A stretch of DNA of 52,093 nt, taken from a plasmid. The notes under the pieces were generated by a model. That model saw only the letters and a program-made list of their open reading frames with translations. It had not been told where the DNA came from and made no database searches. Made by a program: the position numbers and the translations under genes. The stretch is taken from sequence record NZ_CP094683.1; one strand, written 5' to 3'. Shown piece by piece: positions 2,384 through 39,152 of the stretch (positions are counted from its first letter, which is position 1; every line of letters starts with the position of its first letter).

Positions 2384-2806
2384 GCGCTGGCAAAATCCAT
2401 GCCAGCCGCGCGGCGTCTGTCACGGATTTTGCTGGCGGAAGCAGGGCGCGCGTGACCCGTGCGCAGGCCGCCCACCGCCGGGAGGCGTGCGCAATCCGTG
2501 CGCGGATTGCTCACCGCCGGACGCTGCGCTTGCCCGGCCGGCTATTCGGGGCTTTCCGGCGGCTATAGCCGCCGGGCGCGGACAAGCCGCGGCTGCGCCC
2601 CTCAGCGCGCCTCATGGGACAGGGGCGGGCCGCCCCTGTCCCATGGACCCAACCCTGGGGCAGGCGCAGCCTGTATAAACGCCGGAACCCGCCCCGCTGT
2701 TCGCGGCGCAGCCTGTATAAACGCCGGAACCCGCCCCACTGTTCGCGGCACAGCCGATTAAAGTTTTTTGGCACACCTTTTTTTCAAAAAAGGTGTGCAG
2801 GGAATT
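2384..2806. repeat. BIME/REP-like mosaic intergenic element, copy 1. Module order: 'gcaaaatcc..ggattttgc' hairpin; 'gtgacccgtgcgc..' palindrome; 'ccggcggctatagccgccgg' palindrome; 'gggacaggggcgggccgcccctgtccc' palindrome; 2 tandem ~41-bp units (cagcctgtataaacgcc..); terminal 'ggcacacc-T7-C-A6-ggtgtgcc' hairpin.
   Basis: The same modules recur, in both orientations, at 12337-12632, 13590-13975, 16880-17312, 23908-24300, 26737-27198, 32040-32460, 38985-39150 and 44268-44410. Confidence 0.8.
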
Positions 2807-7980: not shown

Positions 7981-8240
7981 CAGGCGGTTTTGTATGGGCG
8001 CGCCCCCGGCGCAGGTGCTTTTTCGCAGAAAAAGCCCGCGCCGGGGACCTTGGCGGGCCGGGCGGCCTCATGGCCGCCCGGCCCGCCTTTTTGCCGTTTC
8101 CCCATGCGGGGAAACGGCGGAAGCGCCGCGCGCCTTAGCGCGCGGCGCTGTCTGTGAGGCGGCGGCGATTGCCGCCGCCTCACAGACAGCGCCGGACGCG
8201 CGGAAAATTCGCGCGTCCGGCGGTTGTCCGGTGGTAATTT
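7981..8240. repeat. Array of six consecutive perfect GC-rich hairpins.
   Basis: Stems read directly: ccccggcgc/gcgccgggg enclosing gcttttt/aaaaagc; ggcgggccgggcggcc/ggccgcccggcccgcc; gccgtttcccc/ggggaaacggc; gcgccgcgcgc/gcgcgcggcgc; ctgtctgtgaggcggcggc/gccgccgcctcacagacag; cgccggacgcgcg/cgcgcgtccggcg. Confidence 0.6.
8052..8092 (+). terminator. Intrinsic terminator of the A2M gene: 16-bp stem ggcgggccgggcggcc / ggccgcccggcccgcc, then TTTTT.
   Basis: Second hairpin of the array, followed by a T-run. Confidence 0.7.
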
Positions 8241-8482
8241 GAAAAGGAATATGGTACAATAACCGCAGAGCGGTTATTATACCGGGTGATGCCCAACGGC
8301 TCGCCGCTTACGCGGCAACCGCCTTTTGATGGGCAATTGTACCATGCCGCTTCGCGGACATGGTACAATATGCGCAGAGCAAACAGCTTGCTGTTTGCAG
8401 CAATCATCCAGCGGCAACTGCTGTCCGGCGGCGGACTGCGCATGCCGCGCCGCAGCATAAAAATACAGCCGCATGAAGGCTT

Positions 8483-10643: not shown

Positions 10644-12341
10644 ATGAACAGGGAACGCTTGATCCAAACGGCGCTTGGGGAGAAAAAGCCGGCGCTGGTC
10701 TTAAAAAACGCCCGGATTATCAATGTATTCACTGGCGAGATCCTGCCGGGCGATATCGCGGTAACAGATGGCCGCATTGCGGGCGTGGGCGCTTATGAAA
10801 ACGGGGAGGAGACGGTTGACCTCGGCGGAGCGTATGTCGCGCCTGGCTTTATCGACGCGCATGTGCATATTGAATCGTCGATGGTCACGCCGCCGGCCTA
10901 CTGCGCCGAGGCGCTGCGTTGGGGGACGACGACGCTGATCACCGACCCGCATGAGATCGCCAATGTAGCCGGCGGCGACGGCGTACAGTTCATGCTGGAT
11001 TTATCGGAGCGTTTGCCGGTCAATTATTATGTACAGCTTCCGTCGTGCGTGCCCGCGACGCCCTTTGAACATGCCGGGGATATTTTCACGGCTGAAAAAA
11101 TGAGCCGTTTTCTCAACCATCCGCGCGTATTGGGCCTTGGCGAAATGATGAATTATCCGGGCGTCGCGGGGTGCGACCCCGAGGTGATGGCCAAGCTGGA
11201 GCTGTATGGCGGGCGTGTGATCGACGGCCACGCGCCCGGTATCTCAAAAAACGGTTTGCAGGCATATATTTCCGCCGGGATGGCTACGGATCATGAATCG
11301 ACCTGCTGGGCCGAGGCAAAGGAAAAGCTGCGCGCGGGCATGGCGGTGCTTGTGCGGGAAGGTTCGGCCTGCAAAAACCTGGAGGAAATCATCCGCGGCG
11401 TCCTGGCCGACGGCGCGGACACCTGGCATCTTGCGTTCTGTACCGATGACAAGCACCTTTCCGATATCCGCCGGGAGGGGACCATCCGGCATAATATCCT
11501 GCGCGCCGTTGCCTGCGGCATGAACCCGGTGACAGCCATCCAGATCGCGACGATCAACGCCGCGCGCATCTACCGCCTGTATGACTTGGGCGCGGTCGCC
11601 GCCGGTTATCGCGCCGACCTGGTTGTATTGCGCGATTTGGAGCACATGGAGGTGCTATCCGTTTACAAGGACGGCCAAAAGCAGCCGGAAGCGGCGGCGA
11701 TTGGACTGATCGGCGGCGGCGCCGACGCGATCCTGCATTCGGTCAGGCTTGCGCCCGTTATGGAAACGTCGTTTGCGCTGCCGGATTGGCATCGTTATCC
11801 GGTGATCCGCATTGTGCCCGGCAACGTCACGACAACGCGCTTTGATGTCGACGCCGCCGAAGTCCCGGCGATGCTGGCGGACGGCAGGCTGCGTAAAATT
11901 GCGGTGATCGAACGCCACCACGCCACCGGGAACATCGGCGTCGGGCTGATCGCCGGGTATGGGCTGGCGCATGGCGCGATTGCGACGACGGTCGCGCATG
12001 ATTCGCACAATCTGATCGTAGTCGGCGATAACGACGCCGACATGCTGGCGGCTGTGCGTGAGATTGAACGCGTGCAGGGCGGTTATACCATTGTGCGCGG
12101 CGGCCGGGTGCTTGGCTCGCTGCCGCTGCCGGTGGCCGGCCTGATGAGTCTTGACGGCGCCGATACGTTTATTCCCGCGCTTGACCGGATGATTGATGAA
12201 GCGCGCGCCCAGGGCGTTGCGGACGGCATCGATCCGTTCATCACCCTCAGCTTTATGGCCCTGCCGGTCATCCCTGAAATCCGCATCACGGACATCGGCC
12301 TGTTCGACGTCGTAAACTTCCGCCCGCTCCGGCCTTTTTGA
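10644..12341 (+). CDS. ade: Adenine deaminase (amidohydrolase superfamily).
   Basis: N-terminal 'ARIINVFTGEILPGDIAVTDGRIAGVG...YVAPGFIDAHVHIESSMVTP' is the characteristic Ade metal-binding region. ~565 aa. SD AAGGAGG. The stop codon lies inside the 'ctttttGAaaaaa' module of the downstream repeat. Confidence 0.85.
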   Translation: MNRERLIQTALGEKKPALVLKNARIINVFTGEILPGDIAVTDGRIAGVGAYENGEETVDLGGAYVAPGFIDAHVHIESSMVTPPAYCAEALRWGTTTLITDPHEIANVAGGDGVQFMLDLSERLPVNYYVQLPSCVPATPFEHAGDIFTAEKMSRFLNHPRVLGLGEMMNYPGVAGCDPEVMAKLELYGGRVIDGHAPGISKNGLQAYISAGMATDHESTCWAEAKEKLRAGMAVLVREGSACKNLEEIIRGVLADGADTWHLAFCTDDKHLSDIRREGTIRHNILRAVACGMNPVTAIQIATINAARIYRLYDLGAVAAGYRADLVVLRDLEHMEVLSVYKDGQKQPEAAAIGLIGGGADAILHSVRLAPVMETSFALPDWHRYPVIRIVPGNVTTTRFDVDAAEVPAMLADGRLRKIAVIERHHATGNIGVGLIAGYGLAHGAIATTVAHDSHNLIVVGDNDADMLAAVREIERVQGGYTIVRGGRVLGSLPLPVAGLMSLDGADTFIPALDRMIDEARAQGVADGIDPFITLSFMALPVIPEIRITDIGLFDVVNFRPLRPF

Positions 12342-12632
12342 AAAAAAGCCTCGGCAAAAAACTTTAGTCGGCTGCGCCGCAAATAGTGGGGCGGGCGCTG
12401 CGTAAAAACAGGCTGCGCCGCCAACAGTGGGACAGGCGCAGCTTGGCGGTTTACCACAGAACGCACCGGCGTGCGTCCAATGCGATCACACCGCCCAGAG
12501 GTGGGGATAACATAAGGGGAGGGTCGCCGACCCTCCCTTTATGAGGCGCGCTGAGGGGCGCAGCCGCGGCTTGTCCGCACCTCCCGGCGGTGGGCAATCC
12601 GCGCACGGATTGCGCGCGCCCAAGCGCCTGGG
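12337..12632. repeat. BIME/REP-like mosaic element, inverted orientation relative to copy 1. Two tandem 41-bp units.
   Basis: Reverse complement of modules seen at 2384-2806 and 32040-32460. Contains the 'ggggagggtcgccgaccctcccc' hairpin. Confidence 0.75.
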
Positions 12633-12657: not shown

Positions 12658-13605
12658 ATGTCCTTTTTGTATTCGGACAGCAACAAACGATACCACACAT
12701 ACAGTTATGCGATGCGGCGGCGGTTTGGCGGCAAGGTGATGCGTGTCAGCCTGAACGCAGGCTTTACCTGCCCGAATATCGACGGGACAAAGGGGCGGGG
12801 CGGCTGTGTGTTCTGTTCGCCGTCGGGCAGCGGAGAATTTGGCGGAAATCCCGCCGAATCCATCGCCGCGCAGTTTACACAGGTTGCGGGGCGTATGTCT
12901 GAAAAATGGGACACGCCTTTGCGGATCGCATATTTTCAGGCGCATACAAATACGTATGCGCCTGTTGCGGTTTTGCGGCGGCTTTATGAACAGGCGCTTG
13001 CCTGTCCGGGCGTTGTGGGCCTGGCGATCGCAACCCGGCCTGATTGTTTGCCCGATGATGTCTGCGCGCTGCTGGAGGAATTAAGCCGGCGCACATATTT
13101 GACGGTGGAGCTTGGGCTGCAGAGCATACATGATGAAACCGGCAGGCAAATCAACCGCTGTTATGGCTATGATACATTTTTATCCGGTTACGAGCGGCTG
13201 CACGCGCGAAACATCCCGGTCGGCGTGCATATCATCAACGGCCTGCCCGGGGAAACGCGGCGGATGATGGTTGAAACCGCGCGTACATTGGCGCGTCTTG
13301 ACCTGCATCTTGTCAAAATCCACCTGCTGCATGTGCTGGAGGGTACACAGCTTGCAAAGCTGTGGCGCGCCGGGGCGTTTGAGCTGATGACGCGGGAGGC
13401 GTATGTACAGACGGTCTGCGACCAGCTTGAGGAGCTTCCGGCTGAATGTATCGTCGGCCGCCTGACCGGCGACGGCGATCCGGATACGCTGCTTGGTCCT
13501 GAATGGAGCCGTAAAAAGCTGTGTGTGCTCAACGAGGTCGACAAAGAACTTTTGCGCCGCAACTCCTGGCAGGGCCGCCGGCGCGCGTGCCCCCCGCTTT
13601 TTTGA
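12658..13605 (+). CDS. Radical SAM protein, TIGR01212-like (YhcC-type).
   Basis: Near the N-terminus 'NKRYHTYSYAMRRRFGGKVMRVSLNAGFTCPNIDGTKGRGGCVFC' carries the conserved radical-SAM cysteine block. ATG 12658 is preceded by AGGAG at 8 nt. The last codons (..PPLF-stop) lie inside the downstream repeat. Confidence 0.8.
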   Translation: MSFLYSDSNKRYHTYSYAMRRRFGGKVMRVSLNAGFTCPNIDGTKGRGGCVFCSPSGSGEFGGNPAESIAAQFTQVAGRMSEKWDTPLRIAYFQAHTNTYAPVAVLRRLYEQALACPGVVGLAIATRPDCLPDDVCALLEELSRRTYLTVELGLQSIHDETGRQINRCYGYDTFLSGYERLHARNIPVGVHIINGLPGETRRMMVETARTLARLDLHLVKIHLLHVLEGTQLAKLWRAGAFELMTREAYVQTVCDQLEELPAECIVGRLTGDGDPDTLLGPEWSRKKLCVLNEVDKELLRRNSWQGRRRACPPLF

Positions 13606-13975
13606 AAAAAAGCTTGGCAAAAAACTTTAGTCGGCTGCGCCGCGAACAGTGGGGCAGGCTTTAGTTTTTTTTACAGGTTGCGCCGCAAACCCCGGGGCAG
13701 GCGCAGCTTGACGGTTTATCACAGAACGCACCGGCGTGCGCCCGATACGATCGCGCCGCCCACAGGTGGGGATAACATAAGGGGAGGGTCGCCGACCCTC
13801 CCCTTGTGAGGCGCGCTGAGGGGCGCTGCCGCGATTTATTCGCGCCCGGCGGGCGGCAATTGCCGCCTGCCGGAAAGCCCCGAATAGCCGGCCGGGCAAG
13901 CGGAGCGCCCGGCGGTGGGCAATCCGCGCACGGATTGCGCGCGCCTGCCGAAGCCTTTTTTCAAAAAGGCTGGAG
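13590..13975. repeat. BIME/REP-like mosaic element, inverted orientation.
   Basis: Shares the 'gaaaaaaagc(c/t)tggcaaaaaactttagtcggctgcgccgcgaacagtggggc' module, the 'ggggagggtcgccgaccctcccc' hairpin, and the reverse complement of the 'ccggcggctatagccgccgg' module. Confidence 0.75.
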
Positions 13976-13983
13976 CCGCGGCG

Positions 13984-16873: not shown

Positions 16874-16879
16874 GGGGGC

Positions 16880-17312
16880 GCTTAGGCGCGCGCGACCCGT
16901 GCGCGGGTCGCCCACCGCCGGACGCTGCGCTTGCCCGGCCGGCTATTCGGGGCTTTCCGGCGGCTATAGCCGCCGGGCGCGGACAAGCCGCGGCTGCGCC
17001 CCTCAGCGCGCCTCACGGGACAGGGGCGGGCCGCCCCTGTCCCATGGACCCAACCCCGGGGCAGGCGCAGCTTGACGGCTTACTATCAAACGCATCAGCT
17101 TACACCCGATACGATCACACCAAACAGAGGTGGGGATAACATAAGGGGAGGGTCGAACGACCCTCCCCTTTTGAGGCGCGCCGCGTGGCGTTGCCGCGGC
17201 TTGTCCGCGCCCGAAGCGCGGCGATTGCCGCGCTTCGGAAAGCCACGCGAAGGCGTCGGACGCCAGAGCGTCCGACGCCGCTGTGACCCGCGCACGGGTC
17301 ACGCGCGCCTGC
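16880..17312. repeat. BIME/REP-like mosaic element containing both forward-type and reverse-type modules.
   Basis: 'gcgcgcgacccgtgcgcgggtcgc', 'ccggcggctatagccgccgg', 'gggacaggggcgggccgcccctgtccc', then 'ggggagggtcgaacgaccctcccc', 'ccgaagcgcggcgattgccgcgcttcgg', 'ggcgtcggacgccagagcgtccgacgcc', 'gtgacccgcgcacgggtcac'. Confidence 0.75.
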
Positions 17313-23109: not shown

Positions 23110-23880
23110 TTACTGCTTTGTATGTTCATCCAGCCAGGCGCGCATGGATTTGGCGCCCATCTGCATCAGGCCGATATCGCTGCTGCACATATTGACCGTC
23201 ATACCGGCTTTTATCCAGCGCGCGAGCGGTTCCATGCCGCCAAAATGCGTGCCGGAAGCCTTCCCGGCGTCTTTTGCGGCCCGGATGACACGTTCAAACG
23301 CCGCGACAATCTCCGGATGGCCGTACTGCCCGAGCAGGCCGTAATCCTGCGACAGATCGTTCGGCCCCATAAACGCGATATCGATCCCCTCGACCGCCAA
23401 AATTTCCTCCACGCGCTCCACGCCTGCGCGCGATTCGATCTGACAAAACAGCAGCGTTTCTTCATTCGCCCGCTCCATATACGCGCGGCCGTCGACCTTC
23501 ATAAAGTCAGTGTGCGGCCGTGACAGCGACACGCCGCGACGGCCCATCGGCGCATATTTTGTAAAGTCGACCAGCTTTCGCGCATCCTCGGCGCATTCCG
23601 TATTGGGCAGCAGCAGGCCGGCCGCGCCCATCTCCATAAATTTAAGCGCTGGTTCGCGCAGTGGTCCGGGAATGCGCACAATCGCCGGCAGGCCGATCGA
23701 ACGCGCCACGCCGATCATCCGCGAACAGCCGTCATAGGAAAAAGAACCATGCTCACAGTCGATGATAAAGAAATCAAAGCCGCAGACCTTTAATATTTTT
23801 GCAAGATCGGGGGTGTCAAAGGTCGTCACCATTGTGCCGAGGACGCGCTCCCCGCTTTGGATACGTTTTTTCAAATTCAT
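23110..23880 (-). CDS. HpcH/HpaI-family 2-keto-3-deoxy sugar-acid aldolase.
   Basis: ~256-aa TIM-barrel aldolase pattern ('FFIIDCEHG', 'PIVRIP', 'GAAGLLLP', 'IESRAGVE', 'FMGPNDLS'). Confidence 0.8.
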   Translation of the reverse strand: MNLKKRIQSGERVLGTMVTTFDTPDLAKILKVCGFDFFIIDCEHGSFSYDGCSRMIGVARSIGLPAIVRIPGPLREPALKFMEMGAAGLLLPNTECAEDARKLVDFTKYAPMGRRGVSLSRPHTDFMKVDGRAYMERANEETLLFCQIESRAGVERVEEILAVEGIDIAFMGPNDLSQDYGLLGQYGHPEIVAAFERVIRAAKDAGKASGTHFGGMEPLARWIKAGMTVNMCSSDIGLMQMGAKSMRAWLDEHTKQ

Positions 23881-23907
23881 AGCTGTTTCCTCCATCGTTG
23901 TATTGCC

Positions 23908-24300
23908 CCGGGGGGCGCGCGCGACCTGTGCGCAGGCCGCTCACCGCCGGGAGGCGCGCGCAATCCGTGCGCGGATTGCTCACCGCCGGGCGCTGCGCTT
24001 GCCCGGCCGGCTTTGGCGCGCGCGACCTGTGCGCAGGTCGCCCACCGCCGGACGCTTCGCTTGCCCGGCCGGCTATTCGGGGCTTTCCGGCGGCTATAGC
24101 CGCCGGGCGCGGACAAGCCGCGGCTGCGCCCCTCAGCGCGCCTCATGGGACAGGGGCGGGCCGCCCCTATCCCATGGACCCAACCCTGGGGCAGGCGCAG
24201 CCTGTATAAATGCTGGAACCCGCCCCACTGTTCGCGGCGCAGCCGGTTAAAGTTTTTTGCCGAGGCTTTTTTTCAAAAAAGCGGGGGCTTTTTTCAAGAA
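23908..24300. repeat. BIME/REP-like mosaic element sitting between two co-oriented genes of one operon.
   Basis: Carries two copies of the 'gcgcgcgacctgtgcgcaggNcgc' module, plus the ccggcggctatagccgccgg, gggacaggggcgggccgcccctatccc and 'gccgaggc-T7-C-A6-gcgggggc' modules. Confidence 0.75.
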
Positions 24301-25250
24301 AGCCGGTGCATGAGGGCCTCGACCTCGGCGCTCGACGGCAGCGCCCGGCCGATGGAACCCTGTTTTGTGACAGCCAGCGAACCGGCGCAGTTGCAAAACA
24401 GCGCCGTCCGCTCCAGATCGTACCCTTGCAGCACGCAGTATACCAGCGCCGCCGCGAATGTGTCGCCGGCCCCTGTAGGGTCGATTGCCGGAACGTCAAT
24501 ACCGCCGGCAGTTACGATTTGCTTGCCGTCGCTCACGATCGCGCCGTTTGCATCGCATGTCAGCGCGATCACGCGCGGCCCCCAGGCGTGCAGCTCGCGC
24601 AGGATGTCGTGCGGGTCGTCAAGCCCGGTCACAAACCGTGCCTCGTCGAGCGTAGGCGCGATGATATCGGCCGAGCGGATCGCTTTTAGCAGACGGTCGC
24701 GGGCCTCGTCGCTGCCCATGACCTCCTTGCGGATGTTCGGATCGAATGAAACAGGCACGCCGTGTTTGCGCGCGATACGCACGCATTCCTGACAGGCGGC
24801 GCGCATTTCGGGGCTGACCTCAAGGAGCATCCCGGCATAGTGGATGGCTGACGCGCCCGCAATGAACGTTTCGTCAATATCTGCTGGCGACAGGCGGCTG
24901 CCGACAGAATTTTTGCGGTAATATTGAAAATTGCGGCCGTTTTCAAGATATTCGACAAAGGAAAGACCGATCTGCCCTTCATCGGACACGACAATGTGCG
25001 AAACGTCGACGCCCTCCCGTTTCAGCGCGCCATAAACAAAATCGCTCAATCCGTCGCGGCCAACCTTGCCGAAAAAGGCCGCGTTGCCGCCGAGCCGCGC
25101 ATAAGCGCAGGCGACAATCCCGCAGGAACCGCTGGCTGTCTTGATAATTGCGCCTTCCTCACAGATGCGCAGCTTCGGTTCCACAGGGATACATTCAACG
25201 AGCAATTCGCCGATAGAAATAAACGGCCGGCCGGTTTTTGCATGCTCCAT
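24294..25250 (-). CDS. PfkB-family sugar(-acid) kinase, 2-dehydro-3-deoxygluconokinase-like.
   Basis: Ribokinase-fold signatures, including the C-terminal 'DPTGAGDTF' anion-hole motif. The stop codon lies inside the repeat module 'cttGAaaaaa'. Confidence 0.8.
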   Translation of the reverse strand: MEHAKTGRPFISIGELLVECIPVEPKLRICEEGAIIKTASGSCGIVACAYARLGGNAAFFGKVGRDGLSDFVYGALKREGVDVSHIVVSDEGQIGLSFVEYLENGRNFQYYRKNSVGSRLSPADIDETFIAGASAIHYAGMLLEVSPEMRAACQECVRIARKHGVPVSFDPNIRKEVMGSDEARDRLLKAIRSADIIAPTLDEARFVTGLDDPHDILRELHAWGPRVIALTCDANGAIVSDGKQIVTAGGIDVPAIDPTGAGDTFAAALVYCVLQGYDLERTALFCNCAGSLAVTKQGSIGRALPSSAEVEALMHRLS

Positions 25251-25308
25251 AACTTTTGCCTCCTATTAATAATATTAATCAATTTCTATTAATTGAGACT
25301 TTGATCTT

Positions 25309-25338
25309 ATTATAGACCTGCACATGAAACGTGTCAAC
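25309..25338 (-). promoter_or_regulatory. Near-consensus sigma-A promoter on the minus strand (TTGACA, 18-bp spacer, TATAAT) driving the kinase-aldolase-dehydrogenase operon. An AT-rich near-palindrome ATTAATAATATTAAT (25264-25278) lies between the -10 and the SD.
   Basis: Hexamers read on the reverse complement. Confidence 0.5.
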
Positions 25339-25590
25339 AGTTTTTTGTTTTGCGCTCATATGACAGCCAGTCCACACTAGGGGCTGTTTGAAAAATCGGA
25401 AATACCGTCTTTTTCTACAAACAGCGGTGAATCCAGCGTTAAAAAGCCTCGGAATCCGAAAGGATTCCTGTGTTTTTTGCCTTGTATTCTCCTGCTGTCT
25501 GCGAAAAATCCGGCAATTCCTCTATTTTCAAACAAGCCCTAAATTTATTTAAAAATATAGGAGCATTCTACATTTTTTCAGACTTTTCCC

Positions 25591-25619
25591 TTGACGAACG
25601 ATGATCGTCTGACTAAAAT
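25591..25619 (+). promoter_or_regulatory. Promoter of the LacI-family regulator gene (TTGACG, 17-bp spacer, TAAAAT). The imperfect palindrome GACGAACGATGATCGTCTGAC fills the spacer and is a candidate autoregulatory operator.
   Basis: Read directly. Confidence 0.45.
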
Positions 25620-25653
25620 AATAACTAATAATTATTAATGGAGAAGGTGTGAT

Positions 25654-26691
25654 ATGAAGAAACCGACATCTTCCGATGTCGCGCGTGCGGCAGGCGTTTC
25701 ACAGGCGGCCGTCTCGATGATTTTGAATGGGAAAAGCGGCGTTTCCTTCAGCGCCGAAACGCGCGCGCGCGTGTTTGACGCGGCGCGCGCGCTTGGATAT
25801 AATCTGCCGCTGCAAAGCGCTGTAGATTCTGACGGGCGTCTGCTTGCCGTACTTGTCCCAACGCTTTCCAATCCATATTATACGCAGCTTTTACAGGCGG
25901 TTGAGGACCAGGCGGCCGCGCGCGGCTTTCGAACGCTTTTTTGCAACACGGCGCGCGATGCGCAGCGCGAAGCGTATTATCTTGCGTTGTTCAGGCGCAG
26001 CCGCGTTGCGGGTGTGATTTATACGTTCCTGCCCGCCTTCCCCCAGCAGGCCGAACAGCTTGCACAGACAATTCCAACAGTTTTGATCGGTGAAAAAAAT
26101 ACCGGGCAAACATTGCCGTCCATTGAACTGAGCAACCGCAAGGCCGGCGCGACCATCGCCCGCCATCTTTTAAAGCTCGGGCACCGGCGCGCGGCGTTTC
26201 TGTCCACGCCTACCAAAAACCTGACGCTTGCGCGCGGTCAGAGATTGGAAGGCGCGCGCGCCTGCTTTGAGCGCGAGGGCGGCGAACTGCTCACGCTTTT
26301 TACAGACGATGTGTCCGAGGGGGATTTTGACAGCGAACCGTACGAATTTGCCGCCGGCGAGCTGCTGGCGCGGCGCCTGTTTACACAGACGCATGGCGTT
26401 ACGGCTGTCATCGGCGTCAATGATATGACCGCGCTCGGCGTCCTTTCAGCCGCGCGTGCGCTCGGCGTACGCGTGCCGGAGGACTGCTCCGTCTGCGGAT
26501 TTGACAATATTTTTGCGGCGCGTACAGCTTTCCCGGCGCTCACGACCGTCGACCATCATCTCGACCTGCGCGGCCGCGCCGCTGTCGATATCGTGCTTGG
26601 CGAGCGCGGCGCGCTTTCACCGCAGGTCAGCCGGATTGAATATGAACCGCGGCTTGTGGCCCGCAGTTCCACAGGACCCGCGCCGCAGTAA
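25654..26691 (+). CDS. LacI-family transcriptional regulator.
   Basis: N-terminal HTH 'DVARAAGVSQAAVSMILNG' and a periplasmic-binding-protein-like sugar-binding domain. Divergent from the sugar-acid operon. Confidence 0.9.
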   Translation: MKKPTSSDVARAAGVSQAAVSMILNGKSGVSFSAETRARVFDAARALGYNLPLQSAVDSDGRLLAVLVPTLSNPYYTQLLQAVEDQAAARGFRTLFCNTARDAQREAYYLALFRRSRVAGVIYTFLPAFPQQAEQLAQTIPTVLIGEKNTGQTLPSIELSNRKAGATIARHLLKLGHRRAAFLSTPTKNLTLARGQRLEGARACFEREGGELLTLFTDDVSEGDFDSEPYEFAAGELLARRLFTQTHGVTAVIGVNDMTALGVLSAARALGVRVPEDCSVCGFDNIFAARTAFPALTTVDHHLDLRGRAAVDIVLGERGALSPQVSRIEYEPRLVARSSTGPAPQ

Positions 26692-26736
26692 CGTTCATAT
26701 TTTTTGCATAGGAATTGCCCCGCCCATCTGTTATAA

Positions 26737-27198
26737 TAATCATACCGGCTTTTTTGAAAAAAAGCCTCGGCAAAAAACTTTAGTCGGCTGCGCCGCGAAT
26801 AGAAGGCTTGGCGCGTCGCAAAACAAAAGTTTTCGCCCGCCTTTTTCAAAAGGCGGCGGGTGAAGGCGGAGGCCAAAGCCCCTTGCGGGCTTTGGCCTCC
26901 GCCGAGGGCAGCGCCCTGAACCCCGGGCCGCAGCCCTCATAAAAAGCGCGGCCCGCAGGCCGCAAGACACCTGTTCAGGCGCACCGCCTGCCCCTAGCAA
27001 AATCCATGACAGACGCTGCGCGGCTGGCGTGGATTTTGCCAGCTCCCACCTTCCGCTTTTCCCACTTTTCCGGCCTTTTTGAAAAAAGGTATGCCAAAAA
27101 ACTTTAGTCGGCTGCGCCGCGAACAGAGGGACAGATTCCGGCGTTTTTACAGGCTGCGCCCCGGGCGCGCGCGCCTTGGTGCACGGGTCGCGCGCGCT
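26737..27198. repeat. BIME/REP-like mosaic element, long variant with extra hairpins.
   Basis: Two inverted-type 'gaaaaaa..ggcaaaaaactttagtcggctgcgccgcgaa' modules flank additional perfect hairpins (ggcggaggccaaagcccc/ggggctttggcctccgcc; gcaaaatcca..tggattttgc). Confidence 0.75.
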
Positions 27199-27207
27199 AC
27201 AGAAAGG

Positions 27208-28146
27208 ATGGTCAATTTGCCTATACGCAAGCTGCGCCGGGCGGCGCTGCGCGCGCTCTCCAGTCCGGCCTTTGATATCCGCAAAATGTATAAAGCCGTC
27301 CGCTCCGTGCAGACGGCGGCGGGAAGGCCGCCGCGCCTGTTTTACAAGCCGTGGGACCATACCGTGCGCGTGGACGGGCGGCGAGTGCCGGTGCGGCTGT
27401 TCGCGCCGAAAACAAACAGCCGCGATTCCATCCTGTTGTTTTTCCACGGCGGCGGATGGGTGACAGGTAACATCGACAGCTATGACCGCGTGTGCGCCAA
27501 TTTGTCGAATATCACAGGCCGCATGGTCGTATCGGTCGATTACCGGCTTGCGCCGGAGCATCGCTTCCCGGCTGCGCCTGAGGATTGCTACGCCGTGGCG
27601 CGCGATATTTTTACCGATCTCTCGCTGTTTATGATGACGCCGCGTCAAATTACTCTGATCGGCGACAGCGCCGGCGCGAACCTGGCGGCGGCTGTCTCGC
27701 TGATGGCGCGCGACCGGGGGGAATTTCTGCCGGAAAGCCAAATCCTGATCTATCCCGCGACAGCCGCGGACCACGGGCCAAATTCGCCCTTTCCTTCCGT
27801 ACATGAAAACGGCGAGGGCTATCTTTTAACCGCGAAGCATATTGAAGAATATATGTCGCTTTATATCTCCAGCGAACAGGACCGCTGTAATCCCTATTTC
27901 GCGCCGTTGGAGGCTTCCGATTTGTCGCGGCAGCCGCAGACGCTTATCCTGACGGCGCAGTACGACCCGCTGCGCGATGAAGGCGAAGCGTATGGCGAAC
28001 GCCTGAAGCTCGCGGGCAACCGCGTGGAGATGCACCGCATCCCGGACGCGCTGCACGGCTTTTTTTCGCGTTCGCCGCGCACTCAGGCAGCCAGGCAGGC
28101 ATATGGATATATCAACCGCTTTTTATGCGAGGTGACGCATACGTGA
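27208..28146 (+). CDS. Alpha/beta-hydrolase-fold esterase/lipase (HSL-like family).
   Basis: 'LLFFHGGGWVTGN' oxyanion motif, 'LIGDSAGANLA' nucleophile elbow, and a His near the C-terminus. The long N-terminal extension of ORF-track ORF 27079 is repeat-derived and is excluded. TTG 27217 is an alternative start. Confidence 0.8.
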   Translation: MVNLPIRKLRRAALRALSSPAFDIRKMYKAVRSVQTAAGRPPRLFYKPWDHTVRVDGRRVPVRLFAPKTNSRDSILLFFHGGGWVTGNIDSYDRVCANLSNITGRMVVSVDYRLAPEHRFPAAPEDCYAVARDIFTDLSLFMMTPRQITLIGDSAGANLAAAVSLMARDRGEFLPESQILIYPATAADHGPNSPFPSVHENGEGYLLTAKHIEEYMSLYISSEQDRCNPYFAPLEASDLSRQPQTLILTAQYDPLRDEGEAYGERLKLAGNRVEMHRIPDALHGFFSRSPRTQAARQAYGYINRFLCEVTHT

Positions 28147-29420
28147 AACGACAGAAAGCCGCGGCCTGGACCCGGCTTGACAACGCCGCCAAAATTTTTC
28201 CCTCCACCAGCAGCAAGGCCGACCCCAAGGTGTTCCGCTTTGCCTGCGAGCTGACGGAGGAGGTGGACCCGGATATCCTCCAGCAGGCGCTTGACACAGT
28301 GATTGAAGCCTTTCCGGTCTTTCGCAGTGTAATCCGGCGCGGCCTGTTTTGGTACTACTTTGAGACAAGCGCCCTGCGCCCCGTTGTCGCAGAGGAATCA
28401 CAGCCGCCCTGCCGGCCGCTTTATGACCCGGTAGTCAAAAGCTTATTGTTTTCCGTCACATATTACCGGCGGCGCATCAATCTTGAAATTTACCACGCTC
28501 TGACCGACGGGACCGGCGCGCTCCAGTTTTTGCGGGCGCTTGTGTGCCGCTACCTGATCCTGCGCCATCCCGAACAGTTCGGGGACAATCCGCCCGTGCT
28601 TGATTACGACGCGTCGCTGACCGAGCGCACGGACGACAGCTTTTACAAGCACTATAACCCCGATACAAAGCGGCGCGCCAATATCAAAAAAACGCCGGCA
28701 TGCCATTTAAAAGGGCCGCGCAATCCGGATTATTTTCTGCGCGTCATCGAGGGTGAAGCGCCCGTTGCCGCAGTCGCAGCCAAGGCGCGTATGTATGGCG
28801 CGAGCATCACGGCGTTTTTGACGGCTGTATTGATCTGCGCGTTTCATGAGGTCATTCCCGCGCGCCGGCAAAAGAAACCGGTCGCCGTTGCCATCCCGGT
28901 CAATCTGCGCAATTATTTTGAATCGGAATCCGCCCGCAATTTTTTTGGCGTGTTCACAGTCGGCTACACCTTTCACAAGCAAAGCGACCGGCTTGAGGAT
29001 GTAATTGCCTCCGTGGCCGCGTCGTTTAAACGCGAGCTGACCGCGGAAAACCTCAGCCGCCGGATGAACGCGCTGCTTGCGCTGGAACACAACCCGCTTG
29101 TGCGGATTTTGCCGCTGGCGCTCAAGGACCCGGTCCTGCGGCTGTCGGCGCTTGTTTCGGAGCGCGGAGAAACAACGTCGCTTTCCAACATTGGGCCGGT
29201 TACAATGCCGCCCGAGCTGACGCCGTTTATCTCCCGGTTTGACGCGTTTGTCGGCGCGGACCGGCTGCAAATGGTCATGTGCTCCTTTAACGGCAATCTT
29301 GTTATGAGCATTACGTCGCCGTTTTCCGGCGCCGATGTGCAAAAGGGTTTTTTCCGCACGCTGACGGAAATGGGCGTCCCGGTGACAATTGCGGCCAATA
29401 CGCTTGACGAGGAGGAATAA
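28125..29420 (+). CDS. Acyltransferase of the condensation / WS-DGAT-like superfamily (HxxxDG motif).
   Basis: 'EIYHALTDGTG' is the catalytic HxxxDG motif of the condensation-domain / wax-ester-synthase fold. GTG at 28143 (SD GAGGTG at 8 nt), overlapping the esterase stop, is a likely true start. Confidence 0.5.
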   Translation: MRGDAYVKRQKAAAWTRLDNAAKIFPSTSSKADPKVFRFACELTEEVDPDILQQALDTVIEAFPVFRSVIRRGLFWYYFETSALRPVVAEESQPPCRPLYDPVVKSLLFSVTYYRRRINLEIYHALTDGTGALQFLRALVCRYLILRHPEQFGDNPPVLDYDASLTERTDDSFYKHYNPDTKRRANIKKTPACHLKGPRNPDYFLRVIEGEAPVAAVAAKARMYGASITAFLTAVLICAFHEVIPARRQKKPVAVAIPVNLRNYFESESARNFFGVFTVGYTFHKQSDRLEDVIASVAASFKRELTAENLSRRMNALLALEHNPLVRILPLALKDPVLRLSALVSERGETTSLSNIGPVTMPPELTPFISRFDAFVGADRLQMVMCSFNGNLVMSITSPFSGADVQKGFFRTLTEMGVPVTIAANTLDEEE

Positions 29421-29423
29421 TCC

Positions 29424-30086
29424 GTGCAGTACTGCGAAAAATGTAAAGTCCATGTGCGCGGCCTGCACGCAAACTGCCCGCTTTGTCAGGGGCCTTTGAC
29501 AGGCGAGGGCGAAACGCCAAACAGCGTGTTCCCTGCCCACACATATCAGGCGCCGCGTTATCACCTGCTGATCCGTTCGATGATCTTTGCCTCCATTGCC
29601 GCGATCGTCGTCTGCGCCACGGTCAATATCCTGCTTGGCGGGCGGCGCTGGTGGCTGTTTATCGCGGCGGCAGTCGCCTGTATGTGGGTCTGCCTTTATA
29701 GCGTGATCCGCCGGCGCAACAATATTCCAAAAAATATTATCTGGCTTGTATTCTGGCTGTCACTCATTGCCGTACTGTGGGATTTGTTCACCGGGCGGCG
29801 CGGCTGGTCCATCGATTATGTCATCCCTGCAATCTGCGTGCTGGCCATGATCGCAATGGCCGCCATTGCGATTGTTCTGCGTCTGCGCATTGAAGAATAT
29901 ATGATCTATGTATTGCTCGACGGCCTGTTCGGCATCGTTCCGCTGTTGTTTTTAACGCTTGGATGGGTGCGCGTATCGTTCCCTTCCATTCTGTGCGTCG
30001 CGGCAAGCATCCTGTCCCTTGCCGCTCTGCTTTCCTTCCAGGGCGAAACGCTGCTGTCCGAGCTGCGCCGCCGCCTGCATCTCTAA
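29424..30086 (+). CDS. Membrane protein with an N-terminal zinc ribbon plus ~5 TM helices.
   Basis: 'CEKCKVHVRGLHANCPLCQG' followed by hydrophobic helices. GTG start 3 nt after the preceding stop, with SD GAGGAGGA. Confidence 0.5.
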   Translation: MQYCEKCKVHVRGLHANCPLCQGPLTGEGETPNSVFPAHTYQAPRYHLLIRSMIFASIAAIVVCATVNILLGGRRWWLFIAAAVACMWVCLYSVIRRRNNIPKNIIWLVFWLSLIAVLWDLFTGRRGWSIDYVIPAICVLAMIAMAAIAIVLRLRIEEYMIYVLLDGLFGIVPLLFLTLGWVRVSFPSILCVAASILSLAALLSFQGETLLSELRRRLHL

Positions 30087-30108
30087 GAACCTGCAAGGAT
30101 CGATCAAT

Positions 30109-31008
30109 ATGAAAAAGCTTCTTTTCGCAATCAATCCGCACGCCGGCAAAGGCGAAATCAAAACAAAGGCGCTTGAAGTCATCGACCTGTTTGTGCATGA
30201 CGGTTATGAAGTAACCGTGCATACAACGCAGCGCCGCCGTGAAATCACCCACCTGCTGGCCGGCCGCGCCGCATTGTATGACCTGATCGTCTGCTGCGGC
30301 GGCGACGGCACGCTCAATGAAACCATCGACGGCCTGATGCGCTGCGCGCAGCGTCCGCCGCTTGGCTATATCCCGGCGGGAACCGTTAACGATTTCGCTT
30401 CAAGCCTTGGGATCTCAAAAAATATTTTACAGGCGGCGCATACCATTTTGCAGGGCGTGCCCTTTGCCTGTGACATCGGCTCGTTCGACGCGCGGTATTT
30501 TTCCTATATTGCTGCGTTCGGCGCGTTTACCGATGTGGCGTATCAGACGCCGCAGCAATCAAAAAATATGCTCGGCCGCGCGGCGTATTTTCTCGAAGGG
30601 ATCCGCCGCCTGCCCTCAATCCATCCTTACCATATGAAACTGACGCACGACAGCGGCGAAATCGAAGGCGATTTTTTGTTTGGGATGGTATCAAACGCGC
30701 TTTCTGTTGGCGGTTTCAAGCTGCGTTCCCCGGAAATCCGCATGAACGACGGCCTGTTGGAGCTGCTGCTTGTACGCGATCCGAAAAACGCCGCTGAAGC
30801 GACCGCCATCATTGGGGCGGTGCTGGGGCGTGATTTCAGCTCGCCCTATATCACAACGCTGCGCACAAAGCAATTGTCCATTTCGGCCGCCGAGGCGGTC
30901 CCCTGGACGCTCGACGGGGAATTTGGCGGTAAAGTTGAAACCGTTCAAATTGAAAATCATCACGCTGCGATCACTGTCCTGACAAACCCATCGCCGCCCG
31001 CGCCGTAA
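30109..31008 (+). CDS. Diacylglycerol-kinase-family lipid kinase (YegS/DagK/BmrU type).
   Basis: 'AINPHAGKG...', 'VCCGGDGTLNE', 'IPAGTVNDFA' motifs. ORF-track ORF trimmed to MKKLLF at 30109 (SD AAGGA). Confidence 0.85.
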   Translation: MKKLLFAINPHAGKGEIKTKALEVIDLFVHDGYEVTVHTTQRRREITHLLAGRAALYDLIVCCGGDGTLNETIDGLMRCAQRPPLGYIPAGTVNDFASSLGISKNILQAAHTILQGVPFACDIGSFDARYFSYIAAFGAFTDVAYQTPQQSKNMLGRAAYFLEGIRRLPSIHPYHMKLTHDSGEIEGDFLFGMVSNALSVGGFKLRSPEIRMNDGLLELLLVRDPKNAAEATAIIGAVLGRDFSSPYITTLRTKQLSISAAEAVPWTLDGEFGGKVETVQIENHHAAITVLTNPSPPAP

Positions 31009-31018
31009 CCAATAGACA

Positions 31019-31066
31019 AAAGCCGCCCCTTTCACCGGAATATTCCGGTGAAAGGGGCGGCTTTTT
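31019..31066 (+). terminator. Strong intrinsic terminator: 19-bp stem aagccgcccctttcaccgg / ccggtgaaaggggcggctt, then TTTTTT.
   Basis: Perfect hairpin plus a T6 run immediately after the lipid-kinase stop. Confidence 0.8.
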
Positions 31067-31180
31067 TCCGTCTCCCGGACGGCTGTCAAAGTCTGGCGCG
31101 CGCAAAGACGGCAGGCAAGAGCTAAGACCCCCTGTATTCACAGCCGAAGGATGCAGGGCAGGCGGCTGTGAATACAGATT

Positions 31181-32020
31181 CTAAGGCAGGCTGTTGCCCT
31201 GAAGCACAAGCGCGCGCAGCAGCGCCATGCATTCGCGCACCCAATATGACGGCAGCAGGCCCCACGGCGTTGTAGATGAAACAGCGGCGCACGGCTTTAA
31301 CCCGGCGGCCTGCGCATAGATCGCGCCGCGAAGCTGGTGAAAGCCATCTGTCACAATCAAAAGCTGGCGCGGCAGGTCCTCGTGTGTGATCAGTTCACCG
31401 GCAAAGCGCAGGTTTTCGAGCGTATTGCGCGACTGATCTTCCATATAGATCTGGTCAGCCGGCAAACCGCGCGCAATCAGATAATCGCGCATGGCAACCG
31501 CTTCGCTGATCGTTTCCCCTCTGTCGACGCCGCCTGTCACAACAACGGGCGTGTCAGAATGAGCCGCCAGATACGTATATGCCGCATCGAGACGCAGGCG
31601 CAGTATCTGCGACGGCTTGCCATTGACACTCTGACTGCCGAGCACAACAACTGTGTACGATTCGCCGGCACGCGGCGGCATAAACCAGGCGTAACGAATC
31701 ATCAGCACGGACAGAACAGCGCCGGTAAGCACAGCGGCCGCAAGAACGAAAGACACGGCCAGACGCAGCCAGCGCCACCAACGGGCCGCGCGTACCGGCG
31801 CCGGGCGCGCCGCGCCAAATGATAGGCTGCGGTGAATCCGCGGCGCGCTTTCCACAGCGGGAAATGCATCCCACAGGACCGCCAGCGCGCACAGCGCCAG
31901 CCCAAATAATATAAGCGTCAAAACGCCGGTGTTAAACACCCCAAAGGGCATCGGCAAAATGCCGCAAATCATTGCAAATATCCCAATAAGAACCGCGATT
32001 CTTTTAAATGCTGATTTCAT
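31181..32020 (-). CDS. DUF218 (YdcF/SanA/ElyC-like) membrane-anchored protein.
   Basis: N-terminal TM helices followed by a DUF218-like 'VVVLGSQ...GKPSQIL..R.D.A...L.....PVVVTGGVDRGETISEAVAMRDYL' core. ORF-track ORF trimmed at MKSAF (32020) to exclude the repeat-encoded N-terminus. Confidence 0.7.
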   Translation of the reverse strand: MKSAFKRIAVLIGIFAMICGILPMPFGVFNTGVLTLILFGLALCALAVLWDAFPAVESAPRIHRSLSFGAARPAPVRAARWWRWLRLAVSFVLAAAVLTGAVLSVLMIRYAWFMPPRAGESYTVVVLGSQSVNGKPSQILRLRLDAAYTYLAAHSDTPVVVTGGVDRGETISEAVAMRDYLIARGLPADQIYMEDQSRNTLENLRFAGELITHEDLPRQLLIVTDGFHQLRGAIYAQAAGLKPCAAVSSTTPWGLLPSYWVRECMALLRALVLQGNSLP

Positions 32021-32039
32021 AATAGGCCTCTGATGAAAA

Positions 32040-32460
32040 AATTTCAACATGACAGCCGGGCGCGCGTGACCCGTGCGCGGGTCACTCACCGCCGGACGCT
32101 GCGCTTGCCCGGCCGGCTATTCGGGGCTTTCCGGCGGCTATAGCCGCCGGGCGCGGACAAGCCGCGGCTGCGCCCCTCAGCGCGCCTCATGGGACAGGGG
32201 CGGGCCGCCCCTATCCCATGGACCCAACCCTGGGGCAGGCGCAGCCTGCATAAACGCCGGAGGCCGCCCCGCTGTTTGCGGCGCAGCCTGTATAAACGCA
32301 GCACCCGCCCTACTGTTCACGGCGCAGCCTGTATAAACGCAGCACCCGCCCCACTGTTTGCGGCGCAGCCGACTAAAGTTTTTTGCCGAGGCTTTTTTTC
32401 AAAAAAGCCGGAAAGTTTTTTGCCGAGGCTTTTTTTTCAAAAAAGCGGGGACTGAAAACG
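32040..32460. repeat. BIME/REP-like mosaic element with three tandem 41-bp units and a duplicated terminal hairpin.
   Basis: Modules as in copy 1. The 'cagcctgtataaacgcagcacccgcccNactgttNNcggcg' unit occurs three times. 'gccgaggc-T7/8-C-A6-gc' occurs twice. Confidence 0.8.
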
Positions 32461-33408
32461 CAGCGCGGCAATCTGTTCGTTTGTGGGGATAGACGGGATG
32501 GCGCCGCGCCCGGCGGCGCAAAGCGAGCCGGCCGCATTTGCGAAATCGAGCGCGTCGGCAAGGGCCTGGCTGTCCCCTTCCAGGCAGGACGGCTGATCAA
32601 GAAGGCGGCAGAGCAGCGCCCCCCAGAAGGTGTCGCCTGCTCCGGTTGTGTCGATAACCGTTGTCTGATAGGTCGGATATGCGCCCGTTTGGCCGCCGCA
32701 GCGGTAAAAACAGTCACGCGGCCCGAGCGTTACAACAATCAGCTTCATTGCGCCGCAAAAGAGCTTTTTGGTCCCCTCCTCCGGATCCGCGGTTCCGGAG
32801 AGCAGTTCCAGCTCCTCCTCCGACAGCTTGAGGATATTTGTATAGGGCAAGCCAAGTTTCATGCCGGCAATTCCCTGTTCTGTGCTGTTCCAAAGCGTAG
32901 GGCGCCAATTCGGATCATAGGAAACAAGCTTGCCGTGTTCAAATGCATACCGTGCTGCGTCAAGCGTGGTGGAACACGCCGGTTCAGCGGACAGGGATAC
33001 CGACCCAAAATGAAAAATCCGGCATCTGTCAATCAAAGCATGGTCAATTGCGTCTGTTTCTATGCACTGATCCGCGCCGGGCTTGCGCGCGAAGCTGAAG
33101 GAACGGTCCCCCGCCGCATTGAGATGGACAAAGGCCAGCGTTGTAAACGCATCCTCTTTCACCTGGATTCCAGATGGGTCGATCCCCAATCCTTCGATGA
33201 CCTCTGTCAGCGCTCGGCCAAACTGATCGCTGCCAACGGCGCTGATCAGCGCCGCCTTTTTCCCAAGCCGTGTGACAGCCGCCAATACATTGGCGGGCGC
33301 GCCGCCAGGATTCTGTTCAAATAAAGGGTTGCCCTGCTGTGACCGGCCGGCCGGTGTAAAATCGATTAAAAGCTCTCCAAGCGCCGTGACGTCGATCATT
33401 ATATTCAC
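32437..33408 (-). CDS. PfkB-family carbohydrate kinase (fructokinase-like).
   Basis: 'GELLIDF', 'GGAPANV', and the C-terminal 'DTTGAGDTFWGALL' motif. The last four codons plus the stop (..SPLF-stop) lie inside the repeat. Confidence 0.8.
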   Translation of the reverse strand: MNIMIDVTALGELLIDFTPAGRSQQGNPLFEQNPGGAPANVLAAVTRLGKKAALISAVGSDQFGRALTEVIEGLGIDPSGIQVKEDAFTTLAFVHLNAAGDRSFSFARKPGADQCIETDAIDHALIDRCRIFHFGSVSLSAEPACSTTLDAARYAFEHGKLVSYDPNWRPTLWNSTEQGIAGMKLGLPYTNILKLSEEELELLSGTADPEEGTKKLFCGAMKLIVVTLGPRDCFYRCGGQTGAYPTYQTTVIDTTGAGDTFWGALLCRLLDQPSCLEGDSQALADALDFANAAGSLCAAGRGAIPSIPTNEQIAALRFQSPLF

Positions 33409-33581
33409 CTCGTCCTTTTATTTTTTCCAGTTTACCATAGTCTTTTCAGGAAAGCAAACATGGCGCGAGCAATCCGTGCGTCACGCGCGCCAAGAGACCT
33501 TTTTTCAAAAAAAGCGGGAAAATTGCGTTTTTACGCAAATTTGGGGCTGTGCGGCGGTATGGGTAAAGGGGTGTTTGACAG

Positions 33582-39150: not shown

Positions 39151-39152
39151 TT

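Follow-up and report, generated by a model that had tools for sequence, protein, structure and literature searches.

A modular family of hairpin-rich intergenic repeats in Anaerotruncus with a tail hairpin that can carry the stop codon of the neighbouring gene

Here we describe a repeat family found in a stretch of 52,093 nucleotides of sequence record NZ_CP094683.1 (the window), DNA of a gut Anaerotruncus bacterium in which a reading of the sequence alone had pointed to a mosaic of hairpin modules at positions 2384-2806. The family is hairpin-rich, intergenic and modular, and it is specific to the Anaerotruncus lineage. Searchable literature held nothing on Anaerotruncus repeats or on the module sequences, so the family is undescribed in those sources; its kind is known, that of repetitive extragenic palindromes (REP), bacterial interspersed mosaic elements (BIME) and BOX elements. 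We consider it probable that this REP-, BIME- or BOX-like family is an old resident of the genome, made of largely selfish or neutral DNA that changes by slippage and by recombination between copies. Anaerotruncus colihominis is a common human gut commensal, and the repeats fill many of its intergenic regions.

Nine family members lie in the window, at 2384-2806, 12329-12632, 13590-13976, 16877-17312, 23908-24306, 26740-27198, 32040-32452, 38985-39167 and 44256-44410 (Elements 1 to 9, in this order), every one of them between genes. Allowing up to two mismatches, we counted the tail pattern CAGCCGNYTAAAGTTTTTTNNCNNNNCTTTTTT nine times in the window; a 34-nt core is repeated five times exactly, and neither appeared in shuffled sequence (dinucleotide shuffles for the core). 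A 248-nt core recurs four times at 79-94% identity, and in a self-BLAST of the window with related loci the same islands stand out at a depth of 14-70. The modules quoted in the sequence-only reading were found, namely hairpins H1 (gtgacccgtgcgcgggtcac) and H2 (ccggcggctatagccgccgg), both H3 hairpins, the 41-bp unit and the T7-C-A6 hairpin, and the spurious open reading frames (ORFs) that it expected from the family do arise. It had listed about ten copies, and nine of the ten loci hold. The remaining one, 7981-8240 (no strand assigned), is hairpin-rich but not repeated elsewhere: it consists of five to six perfect GC-rich hairpins after a gene for a 1707-aa macroglobulin-like protein, its self-BLAST depth is below 3, and it aligns with strain JM4-15 as a single orthologous block. 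The first hairpin of this unique locus is built inside out like the tail units of the family, with GC arms outside and T5...A5 beside the loop.

An exact scan for the tail pattern in one genome from each of 185,579 species gave matches only in A. colihominis DSM 17241 and in JM4-15; the window belongs to neither of these two genomes. In DSM 17241 (NZ_CP102255.1) 14 pattern-bearing 8-kb blocks of the 3.56-Mb chromosome were found, and in JM4-15 another 35 on many scaffolds, making a total of 49. With copies in DSM 17241, JM4-15 and many gut metagenome contigs, the family is not confined to the window; such confinement would, according to the sequence-only reading, have refuted its idea of a genome-wide family. 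Twelve of the 14 DSM 17241 blocks are located at 0.016-0.51 or 3.26-3.51 Mb, one arc of ~0.8 Mb around coordinate 0, and the JM4-15 copies are likewise concentrated on a few scaffolds. Collections of viral, phage and plasmid sequences contained no family matches, and a phage or plasmid origin was discarded on these grounds. A known RNA family was also discarded, since only a tRNA passes the Rfam gathering thresholds and the E-value scans were negative as well; sub-threshold hits within the elements are weak and implausible.

Eight hand-defined modules were mapped over 435 kb of sampled Anaerotruncus DNA (the window plus loci L001-L049), giving 75 islands. The islands follow the grammars (A1)n-A2-(A3/B3)-(U)n-(T)n, in which A3 and B3 now and then stand together, C0-C1-(U)n-(T)n, (U)n-(T)n, or (T)n alone, and composite islands are mostly head-to-tail joins of these types. 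A1 is a unit of 60-62 nt with hairpin H1, A2 comprises H2 and two more hairpins, and A3 and B3 are alternative cassettes, each with different perfect hairpins. C0 and C1 make a second type of body. The 41-nt unit U is present in 1-6 copies per element, the body is optional, and elements reach up to ~700 bp. Whole elements are found on either strand, but module order and polarity inside each element are fixed. Consequently, the proposal that every copy is a different combination and orientation of interchangeable modules is right about the mosaic and about whole elements on both strands, and wrong about the inside of an element. The sole inverted join in the window is at 16885-17310, where two tailless bodies meet, one of A-type (+ strand) and one of B-type (- strand). 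Minimal elements start at a discrete box (...CCCCACTGTTCGCGGCGCAGCC), and for this reason random 5' truncation with a common 3' end, in the style of retroelements or rolling-circle elements, was rejected.

The tail unit T is 36-37 nt long and is composed of AAAG, T6, an 8-nt arm, the core T7-C-A6 and a 5-6-nt arm, with the A/T runs beside the hairpin loop. We found 187 T units in the 435 kb, in direct arrays of up to six. Their arms were analysed directly instead of by alignment columns, because the variable lengths of the T and A runs shift the register, and they fall into discrete types. Fully complementary arms are GGCATACC/GGTATG, GGCTTACC/GGTAAG, GGCCCACC/GGTGGG, GGCACACC/GGTGTG and GGGTTACC/GGTAAC. 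Among the others, the most frequent, GCCGAGGC/GCCGG, forms 3+2 bp with a bulged GA, and the one that mostly stands outermost, GCCAAGC/GCGGGG, forms just 2 bp; about half of the T units are poorly paired. Among the stems that had been quoted, ggcacacc/ggtgtgc (7 bp) and agcatacc/ggtatgct (8 bp) are real and ggcttacc/ggcaag pairs with one mismatch, but gccgaggc/gcctcggc is absent from the sequence, the actual right arm being GCCGG or GCGGGG. The base in the T loop is C in 188 of 199 units and G once; being nearly invariant, it indicates that the T unit keeps its polarity. In a few T units the left and right arms belong to different types, an expected outcome of crossing-over inside the A/T core.

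Arm pairing exceeds what shuffling the right arms among units produces. Fully paired 6-bp T stems come in seven distinct forms, where 0.6 would be expected, and the mean pairing of unique arm pairs is 3.44 of 6, compared with 2.53 +/- 0.13 after shuffling. In the A1-A2 alignment, both-sided changes affect eight of 43 predicted pairs, four of them in H1. The compensatory stem changes described earlier thus do exist, in H1 and in some of the T hairpins, but they are no proof that the structure is under selection, as had been concluded. Among pairs predicted on both strands 96% are Watson-Crick, and mismatches of the G-U type number 9 versus 15 of 909 for the two strands, which recent amplification or palindrome-templated repair would produce as well. 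Comparing G-U with A-C mismatches therefore gave no signal for the strand of function, and without such a bias RNA-level selection, DNA-level selection and palindrome-correcting repair are indistinguishable.

The tail has a clear relation to gene ends. With gene calls that were crude longest ORFs, 51 of 70 islands (~73%) turn their T end to the 3' end of a convergent gene; the head end has no preference. Stop codons of convergent ORFs lie at a sharply peaked distance from the T core: in 27 of 98 outermost T units the stop is the core TGA read on the other strand (TTTTTTGA), and in 8 more of the 98 a truncated outer unit supplies this TGA (~35 in total), whereas only three ORFs pass through the T core in another frame. 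In this way dozens of proteins gain three to four residues and their stop codon from the repeats, and end in PLF, RLF, RPF, QPF or YLF. Five genes of the window stop inside a T or T-like core, at 12341, 13605, 24294, 32437 and 39153. T-derived C-termini such as DPQIFPLF and LMEKPPLF are common to orthologues of DSM 17241 and JM4-15, which indicates that the arrangement of T at the stop is older than the split of these lineages. The radical-SAM protein ends in ...GRRRACPPLF in the window and in ...GRRRRV in JM4-15, where the TGA lies inside an H1-like hairpin and there is no T unit. Elements of both orientations are mixed along the 52-kb window, and likewise in either replichore of DSM 17241. 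This mixture, together with T facing convergent genes, tells us that orientation follows genes and not replication. A replication-strand-dependent orientation, which is a signature of IS200/IS605 elements, was rejected by the same observation.

Close strains were represented by ten gut metagenome or isolate contigs that are nearly identical to the window and were identified by means of its PfkB protein. At the four loci compared, all 11 near-identical strains have an element, and the differences lie inside the elements: A1 is present once or three times and U twice or three times, T types differ, 10 nt are deleted, and the A3 cassette is swapped for B3 with identical flanks. At 26692-27209 (Element 6) a hairpin loop is inverted in some strains (ccttgcgg versus ccgcaagg). 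Such differences in unit number and cassette between near-identical strains are ready-made strain markers. The window was also compared with JM4-15 scaffold 15, syntenic over 32 kb at 85-91% identity, where the same loci hold family sequence with different content. At the locus of 2384-2806 both strains start with C0 and end with a locus-specific T (GGCACACC/GGTGTG), and the middle part is an A body in one and a C1 body in the other. The LacI-esterase locus (Element 6) holds a C-type element in opposite orientation in JM4-15. At the radical-SAM/NERD locus (Element 3) JM4-15 has just an H1-like remnant with the TGA of the gene, followed by an unrelated miniature inverted-repeat transposable element (MITE). 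No clean empty or insertion site was seen at the four loci in the 11 strains or at the syntenic JM4-15 loci, so a target-site duplication is not readable.

The unrelated MITE is ~165 bp long and AT-richer, and is found at 25377-25542 of the window, at L046 4080-4225 and at L004 2391-2553, with inverted ends (TGTTTGAAAAA; GGGGCTGTTTGAAAAA.../...TTTTCAAACAAGCCC). It shows clean presence or absence at three sites, being window-only at one and JM4-15-only at two. A further strain-specific insertion is a Rep_trans (rolling-circle replication) gene at L055 17333-18135 in one close strain, located beside RNase J, where the others have NERD.

As the same loci are occupied with differing content, including between species ~88% identical, old occupancy is the simplest reading, and the family would offer a clear case of a repeat that evolves at fixed loci by slippage and recombination between copies. 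We therefore favour as probable an old, largely selfish or neutral resident of the REP, BIME or BOX kind. Under this explanation, present change would come mainly from replication slippage and from recombination or gene conversion among dispersed copies, and not mainly from frequent transposition; the common U, T and linker segments would provide the homology that moves bodies between loci. Active transposition would be slow at best. The hairpins might be kept by selection on the mRNA 3' end or on DNA structure, or else by palindrome-templated repair. The element would be read within the transcript of the neighbouring gene, as its 3' part or as intercistronic RNA, and for this reason the likeliest effect would be REP-like, a stable 3' structure influencing mRNA decay or read-through. 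In the + sense, a T array (hairpin, AAG, U6) could also act as a weak terminator against antisense transcription.

Several observations weigh against this explanation. T units fit no canonical intrinsic terminator on either strand, which would need a G+C-rich hairpin with a 3-8-nt loop and a U-tract starting 0-2 nt behind it: in the + sense U6 comes 3 nt after the stem (AAG-U6), in the - sense, in which the adjacent gene is read, A6-CUUU stands behind the hairpin in place of a U-tract, and a consensus terminator scan of 23800-33600 called no T unit. Measured against shuffles, the T array is no more stable in the + sense (z -0.9) and modestly more so in the - sense (z -2.8). Dispersal to many loci is not explained by recombination alone and may need a slow transposition mechanism. 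The bias for an in-frame TGA (~35 versus 3) and the loop C (188 of 199) suggest a more specific targeting or function than expected of neutral DNA; since REP- or BOX-like action does not explain either the TGA preference or the fixed loop polarity, more specific models are kept. Moreover, the orientation statistics depend on crude longest-ORF calls. A promoter on the reverse strand of T (TTGAAA...TTTAGT) was discarded, as it has a 19-nt spacer and a poor -10 box and the promoter scan was empty there.

The T motif also recurs in unrelated bacteria, and this is a concrete lead on the origin or spread of the hairpin. A metagenome scan with a single T-unit pattern, which took exact matches only, so that length conservation within other families is not readable from it, found at least 120 loci. 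About half of the matches listed are Anaerotruncus-like. The other matches listed are on unrelated contigs with a G+C content of 0.28-0.67 and different conserved flanks, several copies each. A pattern that recurs in L060-L179 (e.g. L068 1790-1930, L142, L116, L102) is AAG-T6-N2-C-N4-C-T7-C-A6-G. In a high-GC set, mostly Ga0116226/230/231 contigs, an inverted partner lies ~100 nt upstream in 34 of 70 copies among the matches listed, the others being singlets, and the T motif forms the inverted ends of ~140-bp hairpin elements placed directly after stop codons. Such a doublet folds as one hairpin (-64.9 kcal/mol, z -8.6); on both strands its GC stems are immediately followed by runs of U7 and U6, an arrangement reminiscent of a nested bidirectional terminator. 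On the low-GC contig L142 a T-like unit forms 73-nt tandem arrays with one loop flipped, and L102 looks like a related variant from Oscillospiraceae. In contrast to the high-GC set, only one of 53 Anaerotruncus-type T units among the matches listed has an inverted partner within 170 nt. Either common descent or convergence on a useful hairpin could account for the T motif in other bacteria. It is tempting, though quite unlikely in our view, to see the T unit as a widespread and unnamed class of REP-like hairpins present in several phyla, which would settle at gene ends with a stop in the loop and would be dispersed by a structure-specific enzyme or as a portable 3'-end or terminator module, the Anaerotruncus family being a local elaboration. 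The stop-bearing tail hairpin and its recurrence in other bacteria seem to us the points most worth following.

Among the more specific models, the tails could be host-functional 3'-end cassettes, with T arrays maintained by selection as terminators, insulators or mRNA stabilisers and with bodies and U units as passengers. Such cassettes would account for T ends that lie no more than ~20 nt from the stop codon and leave no space for another terminator, for positions and T-derived C-termini conserved between species, for the AAG-U6 that follows each hairpin in the + sense and for the conserved loop polarity (188 C versus 1 G); the high-GC doublets, with GC stems right before U7 and U6 on both strands, would fit as well. 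However, the adjacent gene reads A6-CUUU after the hairpin, the consensus scan passes over the T units, their commonest types pair poorly, array length and unit type vary freely among strains, and the fold scores on the two strands (z -0.9 and -2.8) are those given above. We hold this model as a tentative possibility. A REP or REPIN system, in which T and perhaps other hairpins would be recognised by a Y1 (HUH) transposase encoded elsewhere and dispersed as single-stranded DNA, is unlikely. Indeed, T hairpins are short, numerous and intergenic and keep a conserved motif at their flank, the singlets and inverted doublets in unrelated bacteria (34 of 70 among the matches listed), which form giant hairpins, give a REP/REPIN picture, and Group 1 RAYTs (REP-associated tyrosine transposases) have been reported in Clostridia (PMC5581495). 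On the other hand, the hairpins lack a GTAG or CGTC tag, the Anaerotruncus arrays are direct (an inverted partner in 1 of 53 of the matches listed), orientation tracks the neighbouring gene and is mixed within DSM 17241 replichores, and the compared loci show no insertion or empty-site polymorphism. Furthermore, a phmmer search for Y1 transposases among ORFs of at least 60 aa in the window and L001-L179 (~1.3 Mb, of which 662 kb metagenomic) gave no hit, although this is a weak test, made with approximate seed sequences. The sequence-only reading was right to place a mobilising gene outside the window, as none of the window ORFs has a transposase Pfam domain, but its suggestion of a RAYT-like transposase has so far no support from this search.

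It is very unlikely that the elements are genes for structured small RNAs, with the A or C body as the RNA, U as a linker and the T array as terminator. Their consistent polarity, the terminator-like hairpin-U6 units at one end and the very stable folding of the bodies would agree with such genes, but element heads show no promoter-like sequence, there is no Rfam match, the helices have no G-U bias for the + strand, and the bodies are swapped, truncated or absent in many copies, many elements being U-T or T only. Finally, a local segmental duplication or a chance similarity restricted to this region has practically no probability left. The high density (nine copies in 52 kb) and the ~0.8-Mb arc with 12 of 14 DSM 17241 blocks would be in line with a duplication, but the many JM4-15 scaffolds and the 14 separate places on the DSM 17241 chromosome refute it, and the absence of matches in shuffles speaks against chance.

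The REP-, BIME- or BOX-like reading that we prefer has to be compared with the systems themselves. Similarly to REP and BIME, the family is made of numerous short palindromes that are intergenic, frequently at gene 3' ends, and form mosaic arrays with conserved linkers; their stems vary with compensation, and the units would be sited within transcripts. REPs are known to affect mRNA stability. The 36-37-nt T unit, always intergenic, is within the size of the short REP palindrome (20-40 nt). REP palindromes carry a conserved GTAG or CGTC tetranucleotide at one end (PMC3733652), and neither was found beside the T, H1 or H2 hairpins; the conserved flank is AAAG-TTTTTT on one side. BIMEs are described as regularly spaced REPs in alternating orientation (PMC2817692), while Anaerotruncus modules and T units are direct, head to tail, in the 75 islands. 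The BIME parallel that had been drawn is therefore good for an abundant, genome-wide, intergenic hairpin mosaic, but not for alternation or the tag. The elements are also much longer (up to ~700 bp) than REPs or BIMEs, have a fixed body-U-T grammar, and place the A/T runs on the loop side. RAYT systems come with a Y1 (HUH) transposase gene of their own, which as a rule is single-copy and has its REPs on either side; in the sampled Anaerotruncus DNA no RAYT was found, by the weak test described above. As for REPINs, the likeness lies in the singlets and inverted doublets of the T motif on unrelated metagenome contigs, the doublets folding to one long hairpin, and the difference in the near absence of inverted doublets among the Anaerotruncus matches listed (1 of 53), whose arrays are direct.

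The BOX element of Streptococcus pneumoniae (boxA-boxB(n)-boxC) is the closest architectural analogue. It also belongs to a Firmicute and is intergenic, with a fixed module order, variable internal units and strong secondary structure, and it can alter gene ends and create spurious ORFs. BOX transposition is slow, with most sites common to strains (PMC3049150). The resemblance is architectural only and no sequence relation is expected (~57% versus 40% G+C); moreover, the Anaerotruncus family has several alternative bodies, two tandem units and a stop-donating tail hairpin. Mycobacterial interspersed repetitive units (MIRUs) of Mycobacterium tuberculosis are tandem units of 40-100 bp between co-directional genes, strain-variable in copy number, which overlap flanking stops or starts; they differ in not being hairpin units and in having no body-U-T architecture. 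The family resembles MITEs (e.g. Correia elements, RUP) in being small, non-coding, multi-copy and intergenic, and in being able to carry regulatory signals. However, it has no terminal inverted repeats, as the tail (...TTTTTTTCAAAAAAGCGGG) is no inverted copy of the head (GGGGGCGCGCG... or GCTTGCAAAATCC...), and no presence/absence polymorphism at the compared loci, unlike the MITE at 25377-25542, which shows inverted ends, target-site duplication and polymorphism. The family thus lacks the defining features of REP and BIME that were tested (tag, alternation) and those of MITEs.

The genes flanking the islands are ordinary chromosomal genes; they encode YbjN, alpha-2-macroglobulin-like, adenine deaminase, radical-SAM, NERD, RNase J, S58 peptidase, HpcH aldolase, two PfkB kinases, LacI, esterase, DUF218 and Mem_trans permease proteins. 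Element 1 (2384-2806, +) consists of a C0 hairpin (2385-2437), two A1 with H1 hairpins (2445-2543), A2 (2544-2614), A3 (2615-2671), two 41-nt U units (2663-2746) and a junction with one T (2751-2798; arms GCACACC/GGTGTGC). It folds better than shuffles on the two strands (z -5.2 and -6.5); on one side it has a YbjN-family gene equipped with a terminator of its own (2339-2377), and on the other the alpha-2-macroglobulin-like gene begins (ATG at 2888). Element 2 (12329-12632, -) has T at 12329-12367, U at ~12368-12442, B3 at 12443-12543, half an A2 at 12544-12578 and A1/H1 at 12579-12620, and the TGA in its T-core loop is the stop of the adenine deaminase ORF (10644-12341), whose protein ends in ...RPF. 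Element 3 (13590-13976, -) reads T-U-B3-A2-A1 plus a lone inverted T-like hairpin (13950-13976); it is placed between the convergent radical-SAM and NERD genes and its T-core TGA ends the radical-SAM ORF (...PLF). Element 4 (16877-17312, no single strand) joins two bodies head-on, an A-type one at 16885-17071 (+ strand) and a B-type one at 17072-17310 (- strand), without U or T tail, between the convergent RNase J and S58 peptidase genes, and its locus has six alleles among the close strains.

Element 5 (23908-24306, +) contains three A1, A2, A3, U and T (24249-24287), followed by a degenerate T-like hairpin (24283-24309) inside which the convergent PfkB gene has its TGA; B3 replaces A3 in two strains with identical flanks. 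Element 6 (26740-27198, -) carries T at 26745-26781, C1 at 26825-26956, C0 at 26991-27039, a second T at 27069-27105, U at 27119-27160 and an H1 hairpin. In Element 7 (32040-32452, +), made of A1, A2, A3, three U and two T (32375-32411 and 32412-32450), the outer T-core TGA (32437-32439) is the stop of a convergent PfkB-family ORF, and the numbers of A1 and U units vary among strains. Element 8 (38985-39167, +) has a degenerate A-like body with H1-like and H2-like hairpins, half a U unit and one T (39129-39167; arms AGCATACC/GGTATGCT, core T8-A6), and the convergent Mem_trans ORF stops at a TAA in the middle of this core (39153-39155). Element 9 (44256-44410, +) comprises a C0-like hairpin (44256-44301), a U-like unit and one T (44368-44406) with arms GGCTTACC/GGCAAG and one mismatch, and then a truncated outer unit, GTTTCAAAAAAA.

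The repeats interrupt or mislead assemblies, give rise to spurious ORFs and change where genes are predicted to start and end. Automatic gene calls vary among the near-identical strains (L050-L059) because of the repeats; the esterase, for instance, is called with 309 or 351 aa, the longer start lying inside Element 6.

The window has further features besides the family. At 8251-8456 there is a third repeat family (ATGGTACAATATGCGCAGAGCAAAC..., with several hairpins), with a self-BLAST depth of 12-17 and no Rfam match, duplicated at the orthologous JM4-15 site (L007 5870-6340). An AT-richer stretch upstream of a primase-helicase gene (46490-48403) holds four tandem 22-bp repeats, GGTGGTCGGTTTCGGTTTGTAT, at 43766-43853 and four dispersed 25-nt repeats, AAAAGGTACTCAGTTTCGGTTAGTG, at 43983-44741, which look like iterons of an integrated plasmid or phage-like element. 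Two to three ~360-bp repeats at 48413-49363 are 84-95% identical, each with a good promoter-like site (TTGACA...TATCAT), and lie in the same AT-richer segment as these iteron-like repeats, which is probably mobile. RmuC is reported to limit inversions at short inverted repeats in E. coli, and an RmuC-family gene is found at 42134-43453 (-) in this palindrome-packed genome, which may be a coincidence.

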